From: a virus
Lineage: Duplodnaviria > Heunggongvirae > Uroviricota > Caudoviricetes
Length of the DNA: 11,520 bases
IMG/VR virus record: IMGVR_UViG_2671180727_000025
Strand: one strand, 5' to 3'
The stretch's first letter is position 1. The number at the start of each line of letters is the position of its first letter. This document shows, piece by piece, positions 1 through 11,520 of the stretch. The translations under genes and the position numbers were made by a program. The notes under the pieces are model-generated. The model was given only the letters and a program-made list of their open reading frames with translations. It searched no databases and was not told the origin of the DNA.

Positions 1-17
1 AGGGGAGCATATGACAC

Positions 18-47
18 ATAAAACAAAGGCGACCGGGGGCGGTCGCC
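18..47 (-). terminator. Rho-independent terminator for the leftward regulator gene
   Basis: Perfect 8-bp GC-rich inverted repeat GGCGACCG (28-35) / CGGTCGCC (40-47) with a 4-nt loop; on the - strand it is followed by TTTGTTTTAT (complement of 18-27). Lies about 90 nt downstream of the stop of the - strand CDS 136..438. Confidence 0.55.
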
Positions 48-135
48 AATGGGAAAACACTAAACATAAGCCCGAACATCATAGCGATTTGCTGGCTGGT
101 GGGCAATGTGATCAGTGTGGTGGTTTGCTGGTGGA

Positions 136-635: not shown

Positions 636-833
636 ATGGTTGCCGTAAATCATACTCCACGACTAGCACACACACAAACGGCCTTTGTGTGGCGTTTTCT
701 GGCCCTGAGTGCCGGAGAATCTCAAATCATCCACGTAACCGCCTGGACGGAACGCGAAGCGCGTAACCGTTGCCCGTCCGGTTGTGTTGCTGTATTTGCC
801 GCCCGTATTCGTCAGGAGGTGCGCCATGATTAA
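636..833 (+). CDS. Hypothetical small protein, first gene of the rightward operon (possibly Icd-like, tentative)
   Basis: 65-aa ORF with ATG at 636 and a GAGAGG Shine-Dalgarno at 623-628 (7-nt spacing). Its stop overlaps the next gene's start. The motif ...FVWRF...VAVFAARI... is loosely reminiscent of Icd-like small proteins of P4-type elements; this is recollection only, not a search result. Confidence 0.4.
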   Translation: MVAVNHTPRLAHTQTAFVWRFLALSAGESQIIHVTAWTEREARNRCPSGCVAVFAARIRQEVRHD

Positions 834-1725: not shown

Positions 1726-2025
1726 ATGAAACTTAAATATTCTGGCTTAACTGCCAGTGGCAACACTCACCCTAAATTTACGCGCGGTGATATTTACCGC
1801 GACCAGTACGGCGGCACGGTAATGATTAAGGGCGTGGCGGGACGGTGCGTAACTTACCGCCGTGAAGGTTACGAATATGATTGCGTGATGCCTGTTTATC
1901 AGTTCCGGCGTGATTTTTCTCTGGTACAGACCGCGCCGCATAACGTGCCCACCAGCAACGCCAGGGCACGGGCAAACCTCCAGAAGCTGAAAACCATGAT
2001 TAACGGATTCAGGGGTAAAAAATGA
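1726..2025 (+). CDS. Hypothetical protein
   Basis: 99-aa ORF with ATG at 1726 and a GGAGAA Shine-Dalgarno (1712-1717). Its stop overlaps the start of the helicase gene (ATGA at 2022-2025). Confidence 0.5.
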   Translation: MKLKYSGLTASGNTHPKFTRGDIYRDQYGGTVMIKGVAGRCVTYRREGYEYDCVMPVYQFRRDFSLVQTAPHNVPTSNARARANLQKLKTMINGFRGKK

Positions 2026-3431
2026 AACTGGCACCGAACGTAAAACTATTACCGAAAGACAAATACACCGATGCGATTATTTTTGCGGGTATTGATGCTC
2101 ATTCATTCGCAGAGCATTACATCATTGCACAGGCCAAAAAAGCAGGCGATCCAGTCCCTCCCGTTTATCTGGGGCGTTATCAGTTAAGCGAACTGGATAA
2201 CCTCCAGATTGTTGATGATGGGCGATACAGGGCGACGGTGATACGCGCCGGAAATATTGAAGAGCCGCAGCTGTTAACCATCGCCACGAAACTGGCGATC
2301 GCCGGAGTCCAGGAGGCGCGGCTACTTTCTGAAAATTTCGAATTGCTGGAGGAATGGAGCGACCAGCTTCCACGGCTTAGGGAGGCATGGGAACGCGGGG
2401 AAAGCCTGGTCATGAAAAAAATCCCCCAGCGAAAAACCACGCTACCGATGAGCGTTGGATCTACCGGATACGACACACAGCTTGATTACGTGGTAAAGGG
2501 GATTATTCCGGCATCGTCGCTTTGCAGCATATACGGGGCGAGCGGTTCCTATAAATCATTCCTTGCCGGATCGTGGGCGTGTCACGTTTCCACGGGCCGC
2601 CAGTGGGGAGGCCGCAGGGTGGCGCATGGCGCTGTTCTCTATGTGGTTGGTGAAGGCGGTATCGGCGTTCCGCGTCGTGTAAAAGCCTGGGAGGTTGTGC
2701 ACGGTGAGCAGGTGAAAAATCTGTATCTGGTAAACCGTCCCATCTTTCCGGCTGTCCCGCTTGATGTTGATGAACTGGTTATTGCTGCCAGTCAGGTGGA
2801 GAGGGAAACGGGTAAACCTGTTCGCATGATTATTCTGGACACGCTGGCGCGCTGCTTTGGCGGCAATGATGAAAATGACTCCCGCGACATGGGGGCGTTT
2901 ATCCGTGGGTGTGACGAACTGAAACGACGCACAGGGGCCACGGTGCTGGTGGTTCACCATTCCGGCAAGGATGAGACGAAAGGCGCGCGCGGTTCCAGTG
3001 CATTTCGTGCTTCGCTGGATGCTGAATACCGGATACGCAGGGAGGACGCAGGAAGCGAAGCGCTGGTTATCTCATGCACCAAAATGAAGGACGCGGAGGA
3101 ACTCAAAGAGGCTGCCTATGATTTGCGGGTAGTGGAGCTTTTTACCGACGCTGACGGGGAGTTAATCACGTCGCTGGTGGTGGTGGATAAGCCGCGCCCT
3201 CCCGTTGAACTGGAGCGCATCGAAGAGGCAGGCAACAAGACGGAAAACCATACCGCGCTATGGGGGTGTATCCGTTCACGCACACAGAACGGCGACAAGT
3301 GCACGATCCCGCTGTTACGTGATGACATGAAAAAACTGGGGTACGAAATAAAGCACTTCCGGCGCTGGCTGGGCAAGCTGGAAAAAGACGGCGTTATCTA
3401 TGTTGACGGCGATGATGTAGGGCCACTGTAA
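2022..3431 (+). CDS. Replication initiator/helicase, RepA-like AAA_25 (RecA-fold) ATPase
   Basis: 469-aa ORF. Walker A-like IYGASGSYKS, Walker B-like VRMIILDTLARCFGG, and a downstream VLVVHHSGKD motif are typical of RepA/DnaB-like AAA_25 helicases of plasmids and PICI/satellite Rep proteins. No primase zinc-finger or TOPRIM motif recognised by eye. An iteron array begins 1 nt after the stop. Confidence 0.8.
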   Translation: MKLAPNVKLLPKDKYTDAIIFAGIDAHSFAEHYIIAQAKKAGDPVPPVYLGRYQLSELDNLQIVDDGRYRATVIRAGNIEEPQLLTIATKLAIAGVQEARLLSENFELLEEWSDQLPRLREAWERGESLVMKKIPQRKTTLPMSVGSTGYDTQLDYVVKGIIPASSLCSIYGASGSYKSFLAGSWACHVSTGRQWGGRRVAHGAVLYVVGEGGIGVPRRVKAWEVVHGEQVKNLYLVNRPIFPAVPLDVDELVIAASQVERETGKPVRMIILDTLARCFGGNDENDSRDMGAFIRGCDELKRRTGATVLVVHHSGKDETKGARGSSAFRASLDAEYRIRREDAGSEALVISCTKMKDAEELKEAAYDLRVVELFTDADGELITSLVVVDKPRPPVELERIEEAGNKTENHTALWGCIRSRTQNGDKCTIPLLRDDMKKLGYEIKHFRRWLGKLEKDGVIYVDGDDVGPL

Positions 3432-3634
3432 AAAGTGGGGGGCAAAAGTGGTGGGCATGGGGAATTTAACAAAATTTAAACACGACCCCCCACTTTTTGA
3501 CCTGTATACATCCCAAAAAGTGGGGAGCAAAAAAAATTCTTATGAAACAGTATGATAAAAATTACAAATCCCACGCCTTTAACGAGATGGGGAATTGTGA
3601 AAAGTGGGGAGTAAAAGTGGGTATAGGTGGGGAG
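3432..3634. repeat. Iteron array, putative origin of replication
   Basis: At least seven copies of (A)AAAGTGGGG(A/G): 3432-3442, 3444-3455, inverted 3486-3498 (CCCCCCACTTTTT), 3515-3527, 3599-3611, 3613-3622, and a degenerate 3623-3634. Two repeat clusters flank an AT-rich core (about 3528-3598). Position immediately downstream of the Rep helicase matches rep-ori organisation in PICI/SaPI-type elements. Confidence 0.6.
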
Positions 3635-3886
3635 ATGACACAAAAACGCAAAGACAGAACACAGCCAAAATATAAAGCGTTAGACATGACAGAGCACGCT
3701 TTAAAGGTGGCAATCAGAACGATAGACCGCCACGCGGGGGAAGGATACGCGAAGGAGCATCCCGAACTGATAAGCGCATTCATGACCACAGCGGCGGCAA
3801 ACTTTGCCACGCTGACAGAACGGGAGATTGCCGAAGCGGAACAGGTAACAACAATCAACGTTAAAACCGGAGAGGTGGAATCATGA
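3635..3886 (+). CDS. Hypothetical protein
   Basis: Internal ATG 3635 of track ORF 3497..3886, 83 aa. Chosen because the upstream in-frame portion merely translates the iteron repeats (KWGVKVGIGGE). A G-rich stretch (3626-3634) lies just upstream. Start is uncertain; alternatives are ATG 3587 and ATG 3542. Confidence 0.4.
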   Translation: MTQKRKDRTQPKYKALDMTEHALKVAIRTIDRHAGEGYAKEHPELISAFMTTAAANFATLTEREIAEAEQVTTINVKTGEVES

Positions 3887-4188
3887 GCGAACCAAAATTT
3901 GGTGAAAAATTTTACAAGCACAACGGACGGATCACGATTCTGCAAATAAGCGCAGCTACACCAGGCTGGTGGGTTGAAACAGACGAAGGATCCTCACCCG
4001 TGGCATCATGGGCGCTTTGTGTGCTTAGTTACCCTGACCGCGATGTGTATCAGGATATTCTGCCTGTGATATCCACAGACAAAGGCATGAAACCCGTAGA
4101 CATCAAAAGCATGGGTTTTCAGTGCGTAATGCTCACTGAAAAAATGATGGAAGAGATGAAAAAGAACAACGCCGGATCGCTTCACTGA
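3883..4188 (+). CDS. Hypothetical protein
   Basis: 101-aa ORF with ATG at 3883 overlapping the upstream stop (ATGA) and a GGAGAGGTGG Shine-Dalgarno at 3869-3878. Confidence 0.5.
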   Translation: MSEPKFGEKFYKHNGRITILQISAATPGWWVETDEGSSPVASWALCVLSYPDRDVYQDILPVISTDKGMKPVDIKSMGFQCVMLTEKMMEEMKKNNAGSLH

Positions 4189-4197
4189 GGTGGCAAT

Positions 4198-4608
4198 ATG
4201 ACAGCACAAATTGCAGCTTACGGGCGGCTGGTGGACGACCCGCTGGTAAAACAGAGCAGCAAGGGCACACCGATGACTCTGGCGCGTATGGCGGTATCGT
4301 TGCCATGCAGCCAGGCACATGACGGACAGGCGACGTTATGGTTATCGGTTATCGCATTTGGCAAACAGGCCGATTTCCTGGCTAAACATCAAAAAGGCGA
4401 TGTTGCCAGCGTATCCGGCACGATGCAGGTAAGCCAGTGGACCGGACAGAACGGGGAAACACGGCAGGGGTATCAGGTTATTGCGGACAGCGTAATCAGT
4501 GCCCGCGCGGCACGTCCTGGCGGGAACAGACGCAAAGCCACAGGCACACAGGGTAATCAGCCACCAGCGGGAGGTGATGACCCTTACGGTGATGATATTC
4601 CGTTCTGA
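4198..4608 (+). CDS. ssb: Single-stranded DNA-binding protein (short SSB with acidic C-terminal tip)
   Basis: 136-aa ORF. OB-fold-like N-terminal region, a Gly/Pro/Gln-rich linker, and a C-terminus DDPYGDDIPF that matches the conserved acidic SSB tail (DDDIPF). GAGGTGG Shine-Dalgarno at 4187-4193. Confidence 0.8.
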   Translation: MTAQIAAYGRLVDDPLVKQSSKGTPMTLARMAVSLPCSQAHDGQATLWLSVIAFGKQADFLAKHQKGDVASVSGTMQVSQWTGQNGETRQGYQVIADSVISARAARPGGNRRKATGTQGNQPPAGGDDPYGDDIPF

Positions 4609-4618
4609 GGGGGTGACG

Positions 4619-4891
4619 ATGGCACATGACCGCATAGCGGAGGAACTCGAGGCAAAAGGCTTTTACCGGAGGGCGGCGGCGCGATGGGGTGAAGTCATGC
4701 AACTGGTGGAGACAGACAAGGAACGGCATCAGGTTACGATGCGACGGCTGGAATGTTCCAGGAAGGCACAGAGGCCACCGGAGCCGCCGGATAACTTCGG
4801 AGACCTGAGAAAGGCAGTCGATCGCACTTATGCTGAAATGGGTATGGATGGTGTAAGCGATGAAATATGGCGTAATTACACAGACAGCTAA
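4619..4891 (+). CDS. PerC-family transcriptional regulator (tentative)
   Basis: 90-aa ORF from the internal ATG 4619 of track ORF 4499..4891, with a GAGGGGG Shine-Dalgarno (4607-4613). The N-terminal motif AEELEAKGFYRRAAARWGEVM resembles the conserved PerC/Pch N-terminus as I recall it. Followed by a strong terminator. Confidence 0.5.
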   Translation: MAHDRIAEELEAKGFYRRAAARWGEVMQLVETDKERHQVTMRRLECSRKAQRPPEPPDNFGDLRKAVDRTYAEMGMDGVSDEIWRNYTDS

Positions 4892-4896
4892 TCAAC

Positions 4897-4929
4897 AGCC
4901 GGAGCAATCCGGCTTTTTGTTATTTTTTG
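4897..4929 (+). terminator. Rho-independent terminator
   Basis: AGCCGGA (4897-4903), GCAA loop, TCCGGCT (4908-4914), followed by TTTTTGTTATTTTTTG. Sits 6 nt after the PerC-like stop. Confidence 0.8.
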
Positions 4930-5178: not shown

Positions 5179-6336
5179 ATGCAGAGAATAATCGAATTAC
5201 GCCAGCAGAAAACCGCCATTAAAAATCAGATGCGCGACATGCTGGAGAACGCGGAAAAAGAAAACCGCAGTCTTAACGATGCTGAGGGCGCAAAATTTGA
5301 CGAATTACGCGCTAAAGCTGAATCCCTCGATAAAGACATTTCCCGCCTTGAAGCCATTGCAGACGAAGAGCGCAGCAAGCCAGGTAAAAGCAGCCAGACC
5401 ACTGACCCCGCAGAACTACGCAGCTACATTCTGACAGGTGAAACCCGCGCATTAAGTACAGGCGTTCCCGCTGATGGTGGTTATACCGTTATCCCCGAAC
5501 TGAACACCGAAATCATGCGAATGCTGGCGGATGAATCCACCATGCGCCGCATCTGTACCGTGAAAAAAATCAGCAGCAACGAGTTTAAGCAGCTTGTTTC
5601 CGCTGGCGGTGCGACCGTTAACCACGGTGAAGAGGGTAAGGCACGCGAACAGACCAGCACCCCGCAGATTAACGAGGTGAGCATTAAGCTGTATCCGGTC
5701 TATGCGTACCCGCGCACCACACAGGAAATCGTGGATTTTTCCGATGTGGACATCCTTTCATGGCTGACGGGTGAGATTGGCGACACCTTCACGGAAACCG
5801 AAGAAAGCGATCTGGTTGTGGGCGACGGTGACAAAAAAGCAAAAGGTTTTTTATCCGTACCCCGTGCAGAGAAGAACGACAAAGAGCGTGATTTTGGTAC
5901 GTTGCAGGTAATTAAACCTTCCGAATCTCTGGCGTGGACATCTGCGGACCCGCTGATCGACCTGAAATTTGCATTACGTAAAAAATACCGCAAAAACGCG
6001 GTCTGGGTGGTTAACTCCACGACGGCGGCAAAACTCCAGAAGGTGAAGAACGCGAACGGTGATTACATCTGGCGTGACCGTTTACAGGCGGGTGATCCTG
6101 ATACGTTGCTGGGCCTTCCGGTCGAATATCTGGAGTTTATGCCTGATAACGTTATTGCCCTGGGTGACTTCAAACGCGGTTACTACATTGTTGATCACGA
6201 AACAGGTGTTCGCACCAGACCGGACAACCTCACAGAGCCGGGCTTCATCAAAATTTTCACGCAGAAATATTTAGGCGGTGGCGTGGTGGATTCGAACGCG
6301 ATCAAGATTCTGGAACTGCCACAGGACGACGATTAA
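5179..6336 (+). CDS. Major capsid protein, HK97 family, with N-terminal coiled-coil delta/scaffold domain
   Basis: 385 aa from ATG 5179; the track ORF starts at an upstream in-frame TTG 5134. N-terminal 90 aa are charged and coiled-coil-like (ELRQQKTAIKNQMRDMLENAEKE...). The C-terminal body has HK97-fold-like motifs (VVGDGDKKAKGFLS, YIWRDRLQAGDPDTLLGLPVEYLEFMP). No clear Shine-Dalgarno for either start. Confidence 0.88.
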   Translation: MQRIIELRQQKTAIKNQMRDMLENAEKENRSLNDAEGAKFDELRAKAESLDKDISRLEAIADEERSKPGKSSQTTDPAELRSYILTGETRALSTGVPADGGYTVIPELNTEIMRMLADESTMRRICTVKKISSNEFKQLVSAGGATVNHGEEGKAREQTSTPQINEVSIKLYPVYAYPRTTQEIVDFSDVDILSWLTGEIGDTFTETEESDLVVGDGDKKAKGFLSVPRAEKNDKERDFGTLQVIKPSESLAWTSADPLIDLKFALRKKYRKNAVWVVNSTTAAKLQKVKNANGDYIWRDRLQAGDPDTLLGLPVEYLEFMPDNVIALGDFKRGYYIVDHETGVRTRPDNLTEPGFIKIFTQKYLGGGVVDSNAIKILELPQDDD

Positions 6337-6346
6337 CAGCATACAG

Positions 6347-6375
6347 AAGGGGCTTAAAAGCCCCTTTAGTGTTTT
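6347..6375 (+). terminator. Intra-operon terminator-like hairpin between capsid and protease genes
   Basis: Stem AAGGGGC (6347-6353) / GCCCCTT (6360-6366) with a 6-nt loop, followed by TAGTGTTTT. Located 10 nt after the capsid stop. Confidence 0.6.
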
Positions 6376-6390
6376 ATGGGTGAAAAAATT

Positions 6391-6948
6391 ATGAAGAGTA
6401 TGGAAATCCGGTCATCGGAAATCACCACCAGCGGCAGCAACACGCTTACAGGCTACGTTGTTCGCTGGGATAAGCTTTCAGAACTGTTATGGGGTGAGTT
6501 TTACGAAAAATTCCAGCGGGGGGCGTTTACTGAATGGCTTGCGGCGGGTAATGACGTTCGCGGCCTGTATGAGCATGACCACAGTATGTTACTGGGGCGC
6601 ACCCGTTCCGGCACGCTGAAACTGGAAGAGGATGAAACAGGGTTACGCTTTGAACTGACCCCACCGGATACCAGTACAGGGCGCGACGTTATCGAACTGG
6701 TTAAACGTGGTGATATATCCGGCATGAGCTTTGGCTTTCGCTCCCGTAAGGATGTATGGGATACCACAACAGATCCATGCGTGCGCACCGTGCTGGTGGC
6801 GGAACTGTACGAAATTACCGTTACATCGGTACCGGCTTACCCCGATTCCGGCGTGGAGCTGGCCCGCCGTTCCCTGTATGAGCAGCACCCCGAAAAAATG
6901 CCGCGTGCGGATAATCGCCGCTGGTGGGTGGATTTAGCGGGGGTGTGA
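6391..6948 (+). CDS. Prohead serine protease, HK97 family
   Basis: Track ORF 6376..6948; preferred start is ATG 6391 (MKSMEIRS...), with GGGTGA 7 nt upstream. N-terminal ...GYVVRWDKLSE..., a candidate catalytic His (EHDHSMLLGRT) and Ser (DISGMSFGF) match the HK97 prohead protease pattern. Confidence 0.85.
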   Translation: MKSMEIRSSEITTSGSNTLTGYVVRWDKLSELLWGEFYEKFQRGAFTEWLAAGNDVRGLYEHDHSMLLGRTRSGTLKLEEDETGLRFELTPPDTSTGRDVIELVKRGDISGMSFGFRSRKDVWDTTTDPCVRTVLVAELYEITVTSVPAYPDSGVELARRSLYEQHPEKMPRADNRRWWVDLAGV

Positions 6949-6949
6949 T

Positions 6950-8161
6950 ATGTGGCCTTTCAGAAGAAAAAAAGAGCAGCGCAGCATGACGCTTGATGAA
7001 TTTATGGCGCTGGCTGGCACATCGAACACGGGGGCGGGTGAGTACGTATCATCGGGGACAGCGGAATCACTGCCTGCCGTCATGAACGCCGTTACGGTCA
7101 TCTCTGAGGCGGTGGCTACTATGCCATGCTACCTGTACCTGGTACGCAATGAGAAGGGGAAGGAGGCCCGCGAGTGGCTTGATTCTCATCCGGTCGATCA
7201 CATCCTCAACGAGCGCCCGAACGCATGGCAAACCCCCTACCAGTTTAAGCGAATGATGATCCGCCACTGCCTGTTAAACGGTAATGCTTATGCGGTTATT
7301 CAGTGGGGGCGTGATGGTTTTCCGGCGGCTTTACATCCTTACCCGCCGCAGTCGGTGAACGTGGAGCAGACAGGCGAACACAACTGGCGCTATTGCATCA
7401 CTGACGCCTACACCGGAAACACCCACAACTATTTACCGTGGGAAGTACTTCACCTTCGTTACTCCACGGATGACGGCTTTATGGGGCGCTCACCTGTAAC
7501 CATCTGCCGCGAATCGCTGGGGCTTGGGCTGGCCCAACAACGCCACGGCGCGAGCGTGATGCGTGATGGCATGATGGCGGCAGGGGTTATCACGTCAGGC
7601 GAATGGCTGGACGGCGTGAAGGGCAAACAGGCATTAGCCGCACTGGAACGCTACAAAGGGGCCAGAAACGCCGGAAAAACGCCCATCCTTGAAGGGGGGA
7701 TGAGCTATCAGCAGCTGGGCATGAGTAATCAGGATGCTGAATGGCTGGCCTCCCGTCGCTTTACCATTGAAGACATCGCCCGAATGTTCAACGTCTCGCC
7801 GATTTTTTTGCAGGAATACAGCAACAGCACCTACAGCAATTTCAGCGAGGCAAGCCGCGCATTTCTCACCATGACGATGCGCCCGTGGCTGGCGAACTTT
7901 GAGCAGCAGATAAAAAACGCCCTGCTGGTGGCCTCGCCTGTACCTGGTATCCGGTATCAGGTGGAGTTTGACAGCGCGGACCTGTTACGGGCCACACCTG
8001 GCGAACGCTTTGCCACCTATGAGCGCGGCATCAAATCCGGCGTTATGTGCCCGAACGAAGCCCGCGAACGTGAAGGACTGTCACCGCGTGATGGTGGTGA
8101 TGAGTTCAGTCAGGCATGGAAACAGGAAGTAAAAATCAGCGAGGGAGAAAAACCGGAATGA
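6950..8161 (+). CDS. Portal protein, HK97 family
   Basis: 403-aa ORF with ATG at 6950, 1 nt after the protease stop, and a GGGGGTG Shine-Dalgarno. Size and the conserved region around HPVDHILNERPNAWQTPYQF...LLNGNAYAV are consistent with HK97-type portals. Placement next to protease and capsid supports the call. Confidence 0.85.
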   Translation: MWPFRRKKEQRSMTLDEFMALAGTSNTGAGEYVSSGTAESLPAVMNAVTVISEAVATMPCYLYLVRNEKGKEAREWLDSHPVDHILNERPNAWQTPYQFKRMMIRHCLLNGNAYAVIQWGRDGFPAALHPYPPQSVNVEQTGEHNWRYCITDAYTGNTHNYLPWEVLHLRYSTDDGFMGRSPVTICRESLGLGLAQQRHGASVMRDGMMAAGVITSGEWLDGVKGKQALAALERYKGARNAGKTPILEGGMSYQQLGMSNQDAEWLASRRFTIEDIARMFNVSPIFLQEYSNSTYSNFSEASRAFLTMTMRPWLANFEQQIKNALLVASPVPGIRYQVEFDSADLLRATPGERFATYERGIKSGVMCPNEAREREGLSPRDGGDEFSQAWKQEVKISEGEKPE

Positions 8162-8496
8162 ACATAGGGCGACTGCGTGACAGGATAACGATTCAGACCC
8201 TGAAACAGACCAGAGCCATGACGGGCGAAATACTCGAAACGTGGGAGGACGGTCACACACTCTGGGCAAGCGTGAACATGATCAGCAGCAAGGAGGCCAT
8301 TTCATCGGGCGCAGAGCTGGCGATTGGTACCGTAAGGATCTGGATACGGTACCGGAAGGACATCAACGCCACCAGCCGGATAAAGGTCAGTACGGGGCCG
8401 CTGGCGGGGCGTGTACTGAATATCATCGGGCAGCCGTTGCCGGATGTCGCCAGGACACGCCTTGAAATTCTTTGTCGTGAGGGCGCGGAAAAATGA
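8158..8496 (+). CDS. Head closure / head-tail adaptor protein (SPP1 gp16-like)
   Basis: 112 aa from ATG 8158, which overlaps the portal stop (ATGA), with a GAGGGAG Shine-Dalgarno at 8141-8147. N-terminal MNIGRLRDRITIQ and the IRYRKDI core are characteristic of this family. The track ORF start 8116 lies inside the portal gene and is rejected. Confidence 0.7.
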   Translation: MNIGRLRDRITIQTLKQTRAMTGEILETWEDGHTLWASVNMISSKEAISSGAELAIGTVRIWIRYRKDINATSRIKVSTGPLAGRVLNIIGQPLPDVARTRLEILCREGAEK

Positions 8497-8789
8497 CAGA
8501 AGAACTTATCACCCTGGAAGAAGTGAAACTCCATTGCCGTATCGATGGAGACGAGGAAGACCAGTTAATCAGCGGATACATTGCCGCATCGCTTGAGGCG
8601 TGCCAGATACACATAGGCAGGCGCTTTGATGACGGGCTGGAGTTCACGCCAGCCATAAAGATTGGCTGCATGATGTTTATCGCTCACCTGTATGAGAATC
8701 GCCAGATTGTCGCGGATAACGCAAAAACACGCGTACCCATGACGATTGGCGCACTCTGGACGGCTTACCGTGATGTGGGGGTGTACTGA
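8493..8789 (+). CDS. gp6-like head-tail connector protein
   Basis: 98-aa ORF with ATG overlapping the upstream stop (ATGA). N-terminal ITLEEVKLHCRIDGDEEDQLISGYIAASLEACQ matches the typical gp6-like connector N-terminus. Confidence 0.7.
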   Translation: MTEELITLEEVKLHCRIDGDEEDQLISGYIAASLEACQIHIGRRFDDGLEFTPAIKIGCMMFIAHLYENRQIVADNAKTRVPMTIGALWTAYRDVGVY

Positions 8790-9229
8790 TGCCGTGGCAA
8801 CCATTAAGACGATGCACAGAACCAGGCTGTAACAGGCGCGTTAAATCCGGCAAGTGTGAGGAGCACAGGCGGGCGGCATGGCGTGCAGAGGATGCCAGAC
8901 GAGGACACCGCCGCGCGCGTGGATATTCCAGACAGTGGGACAAATACCGCGCCATGTATCTGAGTAAAAACCCGTTATGCGTGCGATGCCTTGAGAAGGG
9001 GATATATACGCCCGCCGTGGTGGTGGATCACATTATCCCGATTAATGGCGGTGATGATGTTCTCTTCTGGCCCGAATGGAACCATCAACCATTGTGTCAG
9101 GCGTGTCATAACCAGAAAACGAAATGGCTTGATCCGGCAACAAAAAGCAAGCGTGCCGCAGGTGGATTTCGTGAAGAGGAAGAACGGGCCGCTAACCGCA
9201 ATAACTGGATGTATGACGCTGATGAATGA
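8789..9229 (+). CDS. HNH endonuclease, terminase-associated (HK97 gp74-like)
   Basis: 146-aa ORF with ATG overlapping the upstream stop. Cys pairs (CTEPGCN, CVRC, CQACHNQ) and the DHIIPINGG...NHQPLCQACHNQKT HNH motif. Sits next to the terminase genes, as in cos-type HK97-like packaging modules. Confidence 0.88.
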   Translation: MPWQPLRRCTEPGCNRRVKSGKCEEHRRAAWRAEDARRGHRRARGYSRQWDKYRAMYLSKNPLCVRCLEKGIYTPAVVVDHIIPINGGDDVLFWPEWNHQPLCQACHNQKTKWLDPATKSKRAAGGFREEEERAANRNNWMYDADE

Positions 9230-9395
9230 TCGGGAACAAAACCGCCTTATCCGTGGACTTATAAGGCAGCGTGACGCATGGAAGACACAGGAAACAGGGC
9301 ATAAAGATAAAGCGTCAGGACGCGCAGAACGCATCACAGCGAAGCGATTAACCGACCGTGACCGCGAGGTTATGGAATGTTTCCGCAATCGCTGA
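9213..9395 (+). CDS. Possible small basic protein (hypothetical, weakly supported)
   Basis: 60-aa ORF (MTLMNDREQNRLIRGLIRQRDAWK...) from ATG 9213, overlapping the HNH 3' end in another frame. No convincing Shine-Dalgarno. The region could instead be non-coding packaging-site DNA. Confidence 0.25.
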   Translation: MTLMNDREQNRLIRGLIRQRDAWKTQETGHKDKASGRAERITAKRLTDRDREVMECFRNR

Positions 9396-9518
9396 TGAGG
9401 CTGTATGACGGGGTGGGGGGCGTTTTCAGGACAAACCCGACCCCGCCGGGCACCGAACGCCTCCTCAAATTTTTATGCACGGGAATTTTTTGAAAAATAA
9501 TCTGGCGAAAAAATAAGC
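9396..9518. other. Candidate packaging (cos) region upstream of the small terminase gene
   Basis: Non-coding stretch between the HNH and small terminase genes containing a G-rich tract (GGGGTGGGGGG, 9410-9420) and an imperfect GC-rich inverted repeat (9407-9418 versus 9436-9447). In HK97-like cos phages the cos site lies between the HNH gene and terS. Assignment is positional inference only. Confidence 0.2.
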
Positions 9519-9875
9519 ATGTCAAGACCACCGAAAGCCCCCGCCTACCTGGATGATATCGCCGTGAAGCAGTGGCGGGAAAAATCTAGGCAGCTTGCGG
9601 AACGGGGAGACCTGACCCCCGCCGACTGGAGCAATCTGGAACTGTATTGTGTCAACTACTCCATTTACCGGAAAGCCGTTGCAGACCTTGCGGCGCGCGG
9701 GTTCAGCATTGTTAACAGTCAGGGCGGTGAGAGCAGAAACCCCGCATTAAGCGCAAAATCCGACGCTGAAAGAGTGATGATAAAAATGGCCTCCTTGCTC
9801 GGTTTTGACCCGATAAGCCGCCGTAAAAATCCACCGGAAACAGAAGAAGAGGACGAGCTTGACCGCCTGGAATAA
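9519..9875 (+). CDS. Terminase small subunit, P27 family
   Basis: 118-aa ORF. The conserved pattern ...W..LELYCVNYSIYRKAVADL...NP...LLGFDPISRRK matches P27-type small terminases. Lies directly upstream of, and overlapping, the large terminase gene. Confidence 0.8.
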   Translation: MSRPPKAPAYLDDIAVKQWREKSRQLAERGDLTPADWSNLELYCVNYSIYRKAVADLAARGFSIVNSQGGESRNPALSAKSDAERVMIKMASLLGFDPISRRKNPPETEEEDELDRLE

Positions 9876-11520
9876 GTACGCAGAAGACGTAAAAACGGGC
9901 AAAATTCCGGCCTGTAAACGGCTGAAACAGGCCGTTAAACGGTACTTTTCGGACCTTGAAAGCCCCCTTTACACGTTCGATCGTGAGGTTGTGGAGCGGT
10001 TTATTGCCTTTTCCAGGGTGTGCCCGCACGTAAAAGGGCCGATGCGTGGCAGATCCATTGAGCTGGAGCCGTGGCAGCAGTTCGCCTTTGCGTGCATCCT
10101 CGGCTTTAAGGTTAAGGCCACCGGACGGCGCAAATACACGAGCGCCTTTATCGAAGTGCCGCGCAAAAATGCGAAATCCACGACCGCCGCGATTCTGGCT
10201 AACTGGTTTCTGATTATGGAGAACGGGCAGCAGGATATTTACACCGCAGCGGTGAGCCGTGACCAGGCGCGGATCGTTTTTGATGATGCGCGTCAGATGT
10301 GCCTTTTATCCCGACCGTTACGCAGGCGGGTGAATATTCAGGCCCACAAGGTGATGCACCCGAAAAGCAACAGCCTGTTAAAGCCGCTGGCAGCAAAAGC
10401 GGCAACCATCGAGGGCACAAACCCAAGCCTTTCCATCGTGGACGAATACCACCTACACCCCGATAACGGCGTTTATTCCGCGCTTGAGCTGGGGATGGGC
10501 GCACGTCCCGAAGGGCTGTTATTTGCCATTACCACATCGGGCAGTAACGTCGTTTCAGCCTGTAAGCAGCACTATGATTATTGCTGCCAGATCCTGGACG
10601 GCGAAGAGGTCAACGATTCAATTTTTGTGCTGATTTACGAGCTGGACGACGAAAACGAGGTTGATGATCCGGCGATGTGGATAAAGGCTAACCCTAACAT
10701 CGATGTTTCCGTGGATCGTGAAAAACTGGCCTCAACCATCCAGAAAGCGCGGGGTATTCCGTCGCAATGGGTGGAGATGATGACAAAGCGATTTAATATC
10801 TGGTGCCAGGGGGCTACCCCGTGGATGGGTAACGGCGCATGGGCTGAGTGTGCCGGAACGTACACGGAGGAAGATTTACACGGGCAGGAGTGTTACGCGG
10901 GGCTGGACTTATCATCAACCAGCGATATTTCCAGCGTGTGCTATGCCTTTCCGGTCGGTAAAAATATCATGCTGGTTTCCCGTCATTATCTGCCGGAGTT
11001 CCAGCTACAGAACCCCGCCAATAAAAACCGCGCTGTCTATCGCCAGTGGGCTAAAGCGGGCTGGATACGCACAACGCCAGGTGACTGCATTGATTACGAC
11101 CGGATCAGAGATGACATCATGCAGGATGCGGAGAAATTTAATATCAGGCTGGTGGGCTTTGATACGTGGAACGCCACGCATCTCAGGACGCAATTACAGG
11201 GGGCTGGTTTTGAGGTGGAGCCGTTCCCGCAAACCTACCTCAGATTCAGTCCGGCGGCGAAATCGTTCGAAGTTTTTGTTAACCGCAGGGTGATTGTGCA
11301 TCGTGGCGATCCGGTGTTGTCCTGGTCGATGAGTAACGTCGTGATGCAGAGTGACGCGAACGCCAATATCAAGCCGAACAAGAAAAAATCACCGAACAAG
11401 ATAGACCCGAGCGTGGCGGCGCTGATGGCGTTTGGTACATTCCAGGCAGAGCATGAGGATTTTGCTTTTGATATAAGCGACAGCCACCGCCAGAAACTGG
11501 AAGAATTTAGCGGGGTGTAA
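9859..11520 (+). CDS. Terminase large subunit (Terminase_1-type)
   Basis: 553-aa ORF. ATPase motifs (VPRKNAKST Walker A-like, SIVDEYH Walker B-like) and a C-terminal nuclease region. Apparent TTG start at 9859 overlaps the small-terminase 3' end by 17 nt, preceded by GAGGA (9849-9853); the first in-frame ATG is about 60 codons in and would truncate the conserved N-terminus. The stop is the last codon of the window. Confidence 0.9.
   Translation: MTAWNKYAEDVKTGKIPACKRLKQAVKRYFSDLESPLYTFDREVVERFIAFSRVCPHVKGPMRGRSIELEPWQQFAFACILGFKVKATGRRKYTSAFIEVPRKNAKSTTAAILANWFLIMENGQQDIYTAAVSRDQARIVFDDARQMCLLSRPLRRRVNIQAHKVMHPKSNSLLKPLAAKAATIEGTNPSLSIVDEYHLHPDNGVYSALELGMGARPEGLLFAITTSGSNVVSACKQHYDYCCQILDGEEVNDSIFVLIYELDDENEVDDPAMWIKANPNIDVSVDREKLASTIQKARGIPSQWVEMMTKRFNIWCQGATPWMGNGAWAECAGTYTEEDLHGQECYAGLDLSSTSDISSVCYAFPVGKNIMLVSRHYLPEFQLQNPANKNRAVYRQWAKAGWIRTTPGDCIDYDRIRDDIMQDAEKFNIRLVGFDTWNATHLRTQLQGAGFEVEPFPQTYLRFSPAAKSFEVFVNRRVIVHRGDPVLSWSMSNVVMQSDANANIKPNKKKSPNKIDPSVAALMAFGTFQAEHEDFAFDISDSHRQKLEEFSGV

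Follow-up and report, generated by a model that had tools for sequence, protein, structure and literature searches.

Positions 5,179–11,520 of IMG/VR record IMGVR_UViG_2671180727_000025, an 11,520-nt stretch of tailed-phage DNA (Caudoviricetes) that is called the window below, carry head and packaging genes of the HK97 type in an order that is not that of HK97-like phages. The question raised by this locus is whether the order reflects a damaged phage genome or, as a first-pass annotation proposed, a distinct lineage of elements. The block was identified, with a probability of about 0.95, as the packaging module of a cf-PICI (capsid-forming phage-inducible chromosomal island) of the proteobacterial group, and its island as a near relative of the prototype EcCIEDL933. 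The gene order is the fixed inherited layout of this satellite lineage and not a rearrangement specific to the window's genome. This family had already been described between 2022 and 2025, with its gene order, the structure of its capsid and a life cycle that relies on stolen tails, and the layout is not new.

The block runs on the plus strand in the order capsid, prohead protease, portal, head closure protein, gp6-like connector, HNH endonuclease, a 60-aa open reading frame (ORF), a 123-bp gap, the small terminase gene terS and the large terminase gene terL; the long ORFs of the window are all on this strand in the ORF listing. The genes were assigned with curated Pfam models, and the refined starts agreed with the RefSeq annotation of a near-identical copy. 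The same order was stated for proteobacterial cf-PICIs by Alqurainy et al. (bioRxiv 10.1101/2022.09.08.507074) and served as a search criterion for cf-PICIs in He et al. (bioRxiv 10.1101/2025.02.11.637232), and the Pfam assignments and coordinates of the window agree with it. SatelliteFinder uses the same cf-PICI components and forbids tails and holins. In the cf-PICI papers, the closure protein is named the 'head-tail adaptor' and the gp6-like protein the 'head-tail connector'.

When the capsid protein was compared with known structures, 381 of its 385 residues were identical to PDB 9GYI, the cryo-EM capsid model of the EcCIEDL933 cf-PICI (He et al., 10.1101/2025.02.11.637232). Residues D257, K290, D295, E319 and R345, which were mutated in EcCIEDL933, the extra loop 227–248 (10.1101/2025.02.11.637232) and the SxGxxAD motif occupied the same positions as in the published EcCIEDL933 capsid numbering. 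The prototype was compared through this capsid model and the genome of O157:H7 strain MB41-1, not through EDL933 DNA, and the nucleotide comparison is indirect. The MB41-1 island lies at the same site, between rcnR and thiM, with the same order and layout. The connector and HNH proteins were 100% identical to those of the window, the portal 99.3%, and the remaining packaging proteins 93–99%, with the protease, closure protein and TerL at 93–96%. EcCIEDL933 was reported at 15.4 kb, and the island of the window is about 15 kb as measured in near-identical copies. The islands of the window and of MB41-1 differ in the replication gene, which encodes a 469-aa RepA/AAA_25 helicase in the window (2022–3431) and a 710-aa DUF927 protein in MB41-1 (locus L086, 6950–9082), while the flanking DUF4222, SSB and PerC genes are kept in both.

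In order to define what is permuted, the block was compared with the deposited HK97 annotation, which reads terS, terL, portal, protease, major capsid protein, Ad1 (gp6), Hc1 (gp7) and tails, with HNH at the right end. The non-canonical order from capsid to terL was confirmed by this comparison, as was the position of the closure homologue ahead of the gp6-like connector, the reverse of the Ad1-then-Hc1 order in HK97. The first-pass annotation had also counted as unusual that the head genes precede HNH, the gap and the terminases. This is correct for the head genes, but the contiguity of HNH, terS and terL is canonical, as circular or integrated HK97 has HNH, cos, terS and terL side by side in the same way. 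Its remark that terL is the last gene was not sustained; the window stops exactly at the terL stop codon, and near-identical Escherichia coli copies continue after terL with a 93-aa ORF (phrog_1561) and about 0.7 kb before attR. The truly permuted part is therefore the position of the head genes upstream of HNH and their internal order. The window order cannot be derived from the HK97 order by one rotation or reversal, which fits the published view of the module as an old, independently evolving lineage.

The order is conserved across genomes and species. The 6.3-kb block was colinear, at a coverage of at least 80%, in 407 of 5,426 complete E. coli genomes, invariably in the chromosome, and it aligned as a single piece with 96–99.8% identity in hundreds of independently finished E. 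coli chromosomes. A TerL-based scan with one genome per species gave 80 loci from about 30 genera of Enterobacterales, Aeromonas, Pasteurellales and Orbales. The nine window proteins were compared with these loci by tblastn, and the count was restricted to the 61 loci whose sequence reaches 5.6 kb or more upstream of terL. The window order was present in 56 of the 61, against the canonical order in HK97: the full order in 46, and the same order without a detectable closure protein in 10. The other five were truncated or odd (L019, L044, L050, L055 and L070). The closure protein was the most divergent gene among the loci. The 60-aa ORF was found at the same position in 26 loci and in a Klebsiella element. 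The annotations of two elements deposited as phages, Pasteurella Pmp8 (15.3 kb) and Klebsiella vB_KppS-Ant (16.5 kb), show this order as well. The recurrence in 56 of 61 loci and about 30 genera excludes mis-assembly and random prophage decay as the source of the order.

Some loci of the scan had further peculiarities. In L055 (Symbiopectobacterium sp., 9156–9473), the gap between HNH and terS was 538 nt long, and a weak closure-like match (25% identity) lay after HNH and not in the usual slot. Many of the Xenorhabdus and Serratia draft contigs (L017, L024, L034, L037, L043, L052 and L053) end immediately upstream of terS or terL, and three to five separate TerL loci were present in each of several Xenorhabdus genomes. 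Both patterns suggest that several cf-PICI copies coexist in one genome and that assemblies collapse where these share the conserved terminase region.

The first-pass annotation had suggested checking whether the capsid protein and TerL cluster apart from those of complete phages. A separation was shown by an identity gap rather than by phylogeny, when both proteins were compared with 50,697 phage records. Matches above 57% identity for TerL or capsid came only from elements of 10–16 kb, a 3.8-kb fragment and the cf-PICI part of a 106-kb record. The small elements of 10–16 kb were 68–82% identical in TerL and 58–66% in capsid. Full-size phages were at most 36% identical in TerL and 40% in capsid, and their terL at about 0.4–2 kb and capsid gene at about 4.4–5.5 kb correspond to the canonical order.

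HK97-like siphophages (HK97, HK106 and HK022) have the same protein family for each packaging gene and share HNH-dependent cos packaging. The identity to HK97 was 27% for TerL, 26% for portal, 22% for the gp6-like connector against gp6, 41% for HNH against gp74 (tblastn), and 47% for the closure protein against gp7, over all 112 aa. HK97 is 39.7 kb long with tail, lysis and lambdoid regulatory genes, whereas the island of the window is about 15 kb and lacks these. The arrangement of an HK97-like prophage, namely the phage order with tail genes and a lysis cassette upstream of HNH, was not found. The cf-PICIs of the KpCIDSM30104/EcCIGN02175 type, vB_KppS-Ant (LR881103) and Pasteurella Pmp7 and Pmp8 have an order identical to that of the window, including closure before gp6-like protein and the small ORF after HNH. 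They were 68–82% identical in TerL, 62–81% in portal, 58–66% in capsid and 43–62% in connector; a cos-like block is conserved in them, and their replication and accessory genes differ from those of the window. Classical Gram-negative PICIs (EcCICFT073 and EcCIED1a) share the P4-type integrase, AlpA, the replication module and helper-phage dependence. By published descriptions, however, they lack capsid, portal, connector and terL and redirect the capsids and terminase of the helper. The SatelliteFinder model of classical PICIs forbids capsid, portal, connector and terL, and the portal, both neck proteins and terL are present in the window.

The island around the block was defined in the chromosome of E. 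coli S19-141, a stretch of which is 98.6% identical to the window over 100% of its length. In this copy, the island sits between rcnR and thiM and is composed of a tyrosine integrase with Arm-DNA-bind_3 and Phage_integrase domains, a 264-aa hypothetical protein, AlpA, Icd-like and YlcI/YnfO genes, several small ORFs, DUF4222, the RepA-type AAA_25 helicase, SSB and PerC, after which come the nine packaging genes and a single small ORF. A direct repeat of ~73 nt with three mismatches bounds it on both sides, with copies 14.96 kb apart (an island of ~15.0 kb). The AlpA gene (PF05930, E=2e-16) stops at the base just ahead of window position 1. In the near-identical copies, as distinct from the window's own flanks, the element is integrated, has the integrase at one end, and falls in the size range of 10–18 kb. 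The PICI-type regulation and replication modules are represented by AlpA in the S19-141 copy and by DUF4222, the helicase and SSB inside the window. No tail or holin/endolysin family was found with Pfam and PHROGs among the ORFs of the window or of the att-bounded S19-141 copy; for the ~1 kb to the right of terL and the 2.4 kb to the left of position 1, this negative rests on the copy and not on the window's own genome. The unannotated ORFs of the island are 60–264 aa long and matched PHROGs of unknown function or transcription regulators. No gene is annotated in the ~0.7 kb from the last ORF to attR (19816–20527 of locus L001) in two E. coli copies; the same slot before attR holds accessory genes in other cf-PICIs.

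The packaging genes overlap by 1–17 nt or are separated by 1–39 nt, and the only exception is the 123-bp gap (9396–9518). The gap contains the motifs GGGGTGGGG, GACAA and ACCG..CGCC.CCTCAAATTTTTA.GCACGG..ATTTTTT.GAAA.TAA. Most motif columns were at least 90% conserved among 66 distinct sequences, and the flanking HNH, terS and TerL proteins were about 51–88% identical over the same loci; such conservation is unusual for non-coding DNA. From Enterobacterales to Pasteurellales and Orbales, the block of roughly 100 bp was made up of the G-run GGGGTGGGG, a variable spacer, and then ACCGCCCGCCCCCTCAAATTTTTACGCACGG..ATTTTTTTGAAAATAA. In L050, the G-run of the cos-like block was expanded, with GGGGTA repeated four times upstream of terS. 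The linear record LR881103, the virion-derived sequence of an induced Klebsiella element, stops at ...TTTTCAGGAC and resumes 22 nt upstream of terS, and when compared with a chromosomal K. pneumoniae copy it lacks ~63 nt of the conserved block (window ~9434–9497). The termini of LR881103 are suggestive of cos ends. In PQ569648, likewise virion-derived, the cf-PICI part runs from terS to the small ORF and is broken at the same gap; this adds weight, but the element is a near-identical Klebsiella one. From these patterns, cos was inferred to lie in the conserved gap between HNH with the small ORF and terS.

When the gap was aligned with the HK97 cos junction, a G-run, a T-run and a similar spacing (roughly 49 nt) to the terS ATG were common to both, in a weak pairwise alignment that serves as a lead only. 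By analogy with HK97, cleavage possibly occurs about 49 nt upstream of terS. No structured RNA of an Rfam family matched the window, including the gap, at gathering thresholds. A hairpin formed by the G-rich and C-rich elements of the gap was considered and rejected, as short inverted repeats are present but the G- and C-runs pair promiscuously and gave no clean compensatory pattern. The anatomy of the HNH–terS gap and the delineation of the cos-like block may be the only unpublished part of this analysis, and a modest addition.

If cos lies between HNH and terS, and att beyond terL, the linear genome inside the particle would begin with terS and end with HNH, in the order terS, terL, accessory genes, att, int, regulation, replication, head genes and HNH; LR881103 is laid out exactly in this order. 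Integration or circularization keeps the operon unbroken from capsid to terL. Two public records of such elements call for comment. In PQ569648.1 (L085; Klebsiella phage P12620-1, a 106-kb 'complete' genome), the cf-PICI lies in packaged orientation at 90.6–106.5 kb and is abruptly joined to unrelated sequence; the record probably joins, through mis-assembly, a phage to a satellite that was packaged alongside it. In LR881103.1 ('Escherichia phage vB_KppS-Ant'), the 765-aa gene after terL (2036–4333) is annotated as 'tail length tape measure protein'. This label may be wrong, as the slot is that of accessory or defence genes in cf-PICIs.

Other explanations of the block were weighed against the cf-PICI reading. 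A decayed HK97-like prophage, reduced by loss of the tail and lysis genes and reshuffled through deletions and rearrangements, has some points in its favour: all eight proteins come from HK97-type phage families, the closure protein resembles HK97 gp7 at 47% identity, and a few related loci (L044, L050, L070 and L019) are visibly degraded. Such decay is nevertheless very improbable. The ORFs are all intact and tightly coupled, the block belongs to a discrete att-bounded unit of ~15 kb with a PICI-type int-alpA-rep left half, and functional capsids were shown to form from a capsid protein that is 99% identical. Independent decay would not yield an identical order in 56 of 61 loci of about 30 genera and in 407 E. 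coli genomes, nor does it agree with TerL and capsid proteins that are at most 36–40% identical to those of any complete phage. A complete but very small autonomous phage, with tail and lysis functions hidden among the unannotated small ORFs, was considered equally far-fetched. Several island ORFs have no assigned function and relatives were deposited as 'phages', but none of the unannotated 60–264-aa ORFs matches a tail or lysis family, and about 15 kb cannot hold a siphovirus tail module, that of HK97 alone being roughly 15 kb. The prototype, moreover, needs the major tail and tape-measure genes of its helper for transfer.

The first-pass annotation had named a chimeric junction between the head genes and HNH/terS/terL as the finding that would overturn its proposal. 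No direct support for such an assembly artefact was found, and the 106-kb public record with its glued cf-PICI shows that such chimeras exist. The colinearity in 407 complete E. coli genomes excludes a chimeric junction; the block is a single 6.3-kb piece at 96–99.8% identity in hundreds of finished chromosomes, the connector and HNH genes meet in an ATGA-type overlap of 1 nt, and the order is unchanged in distant genera, so that the probability left to an artefact is close to nil. The distinct lineage proposed in place of a decayed prophage, for which the first-pass annotation had pointed to cfPICIs as the elements to compare, is thus supported by the published cf-PICI order, the capsid identity, the att-bounded island, the identity gap and the colinearity.

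Nothing in the sequence contradicts the identification as a cf-PICI, but four points weigh against it or narrow it. The integrase gene, alpA and the att sites lie outside the window, and the limits of the island were taken from near-identical copies and not from its own genome. Because the replication module differs from the DUF927 copy in MB41-1, the island is a mosaic variant of the prototype and not EcCIEDL933 itself. Induction, small capsids and tail hijacking are ascribed to the window's copy through the 99% capsid identity. Finally, the cos assignment rests on conservation and record termini, and these could reflect assembly or trimming.

In necks of the HK97 and SPP1 types, the component nearest the tail is the closure protein. 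In the window it was the most phage-like protein of the module, with 47–55% identity to full-size Klebsiella and E. coli siphophages and only 35% to its Klebsiella cf-PICI homologue, in contrast to TerL, which was 81% identical to the Klebsiella cf-PICI protein and 27% to that of HK97. It was 35% identical in vB_KppS-Ant and undetected in Pmp8. For closure protein and connector, EcCIEDL933 and KpCIDSM30104 were reported to share 35% and 63% identity (10.1101/2025.02.11.637232), and the comparison of the window with vB_KppS-Ant (35% and 62%) reproduces this pair of values. In EcCIEDL933, the adaptor/connector pair sets tail compatibility, according to the cf-PICI papers. A joint reading of gap and neck, which is moderately favoured, would make the gap a family-wide cos that is cut inside the ~63 nt at ~9434–9497, and would give the Hc1-then-Ad1 pair, which lies in reversed order between portal and HNH, the role of a tail-specificity cassette that can be swapped with helper phages.

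The life cycle proposed for the island follows steps that were demonstrated experimentally for the prototype in the cited cf-PICI papers and are carried over to the window's copy by near-identity. A helper phage would trigger AlpA-dependent induction, upon which the island would excise, replicate and express one rightward operon. Its capsid protein, S78 protease and portal would build small T=4 proheads of the HK97 fold. TerS, TerL and the HNH nuclease would recognize the cos of the island itself, cleave it and load DNA into these heads only, and the gp6-like and closure proteins would seal the portal and form the docking surface for the tails of helper siphophages, the tail being the sole virion part that the island would not encode. 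In EcCIEDL933, mutation of any packaging gene abolished transfer and left the helper unaffected, the major tail and tape-measure genes of the helper were required for transfer, and tail-less filled capsids could be released and later joined to free tails (cf-PICI papers). The phage-like closure protein, the hairpin after the capsid gene and the conserved gap of the window agree with this mode of action.

Table 1. Features of the window with their positions, strand and supporting matches.
Feature	Position	Strand	Evidence or content
Replication module	1726..4608	+	DUF4222 1726-2025; RepA-family AAA_25 helicase 2022-3431; two small ORFs; SSB 4198-4608
PerC-family transcriptional activator, full-length, directly upstream of packaging operon	4619..4891	+	PF06069, E=2.3e-44
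Terminator-like hairpin after PerC gene	4897-4914		
Major capsid protein, HK97 fold, 385 aa, first gene of packaging operon	5179-6336	+	PF05065, E=1.7e-61
Terminator-like GC hairpin and T tract, immediately 3' of capsid gene	6346-6367	+	Pattern match only
Prohead serine protease, S78, HK97 gp4-like	6376-6948	+	Peptidase_S78 PF04586, E=4e-48
Portal protein	6950-8161	+	PF04860, E=2.3e-90; PDB portal matches down to 2.2e-39
Head closure/completion protein, HK97 gp7/Hc1 type	8158-8496	+	PF05521, E=1.1e-22
gp6-like head-tail connector, HK97 gp6/Ad1 type	8493-8789	+	PF05135, E=8.4e-12
HNH endonuclease, packaging accessory nuclease of HK97-type cos systems	8789-9229	+	PF01844, E=1.8e-08
60-aa ORF, no Pfam match	9213-9395	+	phrog_3173 (unknown function), E=5.5e-36; annotated in RefSeq copies
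Putative cos region, non-coding, 123 bp	9396-9518	.	Conserved motifs and record termini
Small terminase terS, P27/Terminase_4 family	9519-9875	+	PF05119, E=1.3e-23
Large terminase terL, TerL_ATPase and TerL_nuclease	9859-11520	+	PF03354 and PF20441

Several features of the window lie beside this argument. The terL gene has a TTG start, identical to the RefSeq start, and overlaps terS by 17 nt, and the 60-aa ORF overlaps the 3' end of the HNH gene. A putative terminator is annotated after gp5 in HK97, at the same place as the hairpin after the capsid gene of the window, and this suggests that the hairpin is a possible attenuator of the downstream genes, as in HK97. A scan of the plus strand between the PerC and capsid genes gave no sigma-70-like promoter, a result that is consistent with activator-dependent expression but not informative. 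PMC11773190 links PerC homologues in E. coli PICIs to regulation of the locus of enterocyte effacement (LEE).

In the left part of the window, two plus-strand ORFs of 86 and 77 aa (1028–1288 and 1261–1494) matched the halves 1–77 and 78–154 of phrog_2512 (154 aa, unknown function). The pair may represent one gene that was split or frameshifted, or else a natural two-gene form, as separate PHROGs of 74 and 77 aa also matched. RefSeq copies carry a truncated Icd-like cell-division-inhibitor pseudogene (11–133, plus strand) and an intact 65-aa Icd-like gene (636–833, plus strand), whose ORF also matched PHROGs labelled transcriptional repressor. Between them lies a YlcI/YnfO-family gene (136–438), the only minus-strand gene of the window.

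For annotation, these results mean that the block is to be labelled a cf-PICI and not an 'incomplete prophage', with the HNH–terS gap flagged as the probable cos and the closure/connector pair as the probable determinant of which phage tails can be used. The element is common: 7.5% of complete E. coli genomes, Shiga-toxin-producing lineages among them, contain its packaging block.

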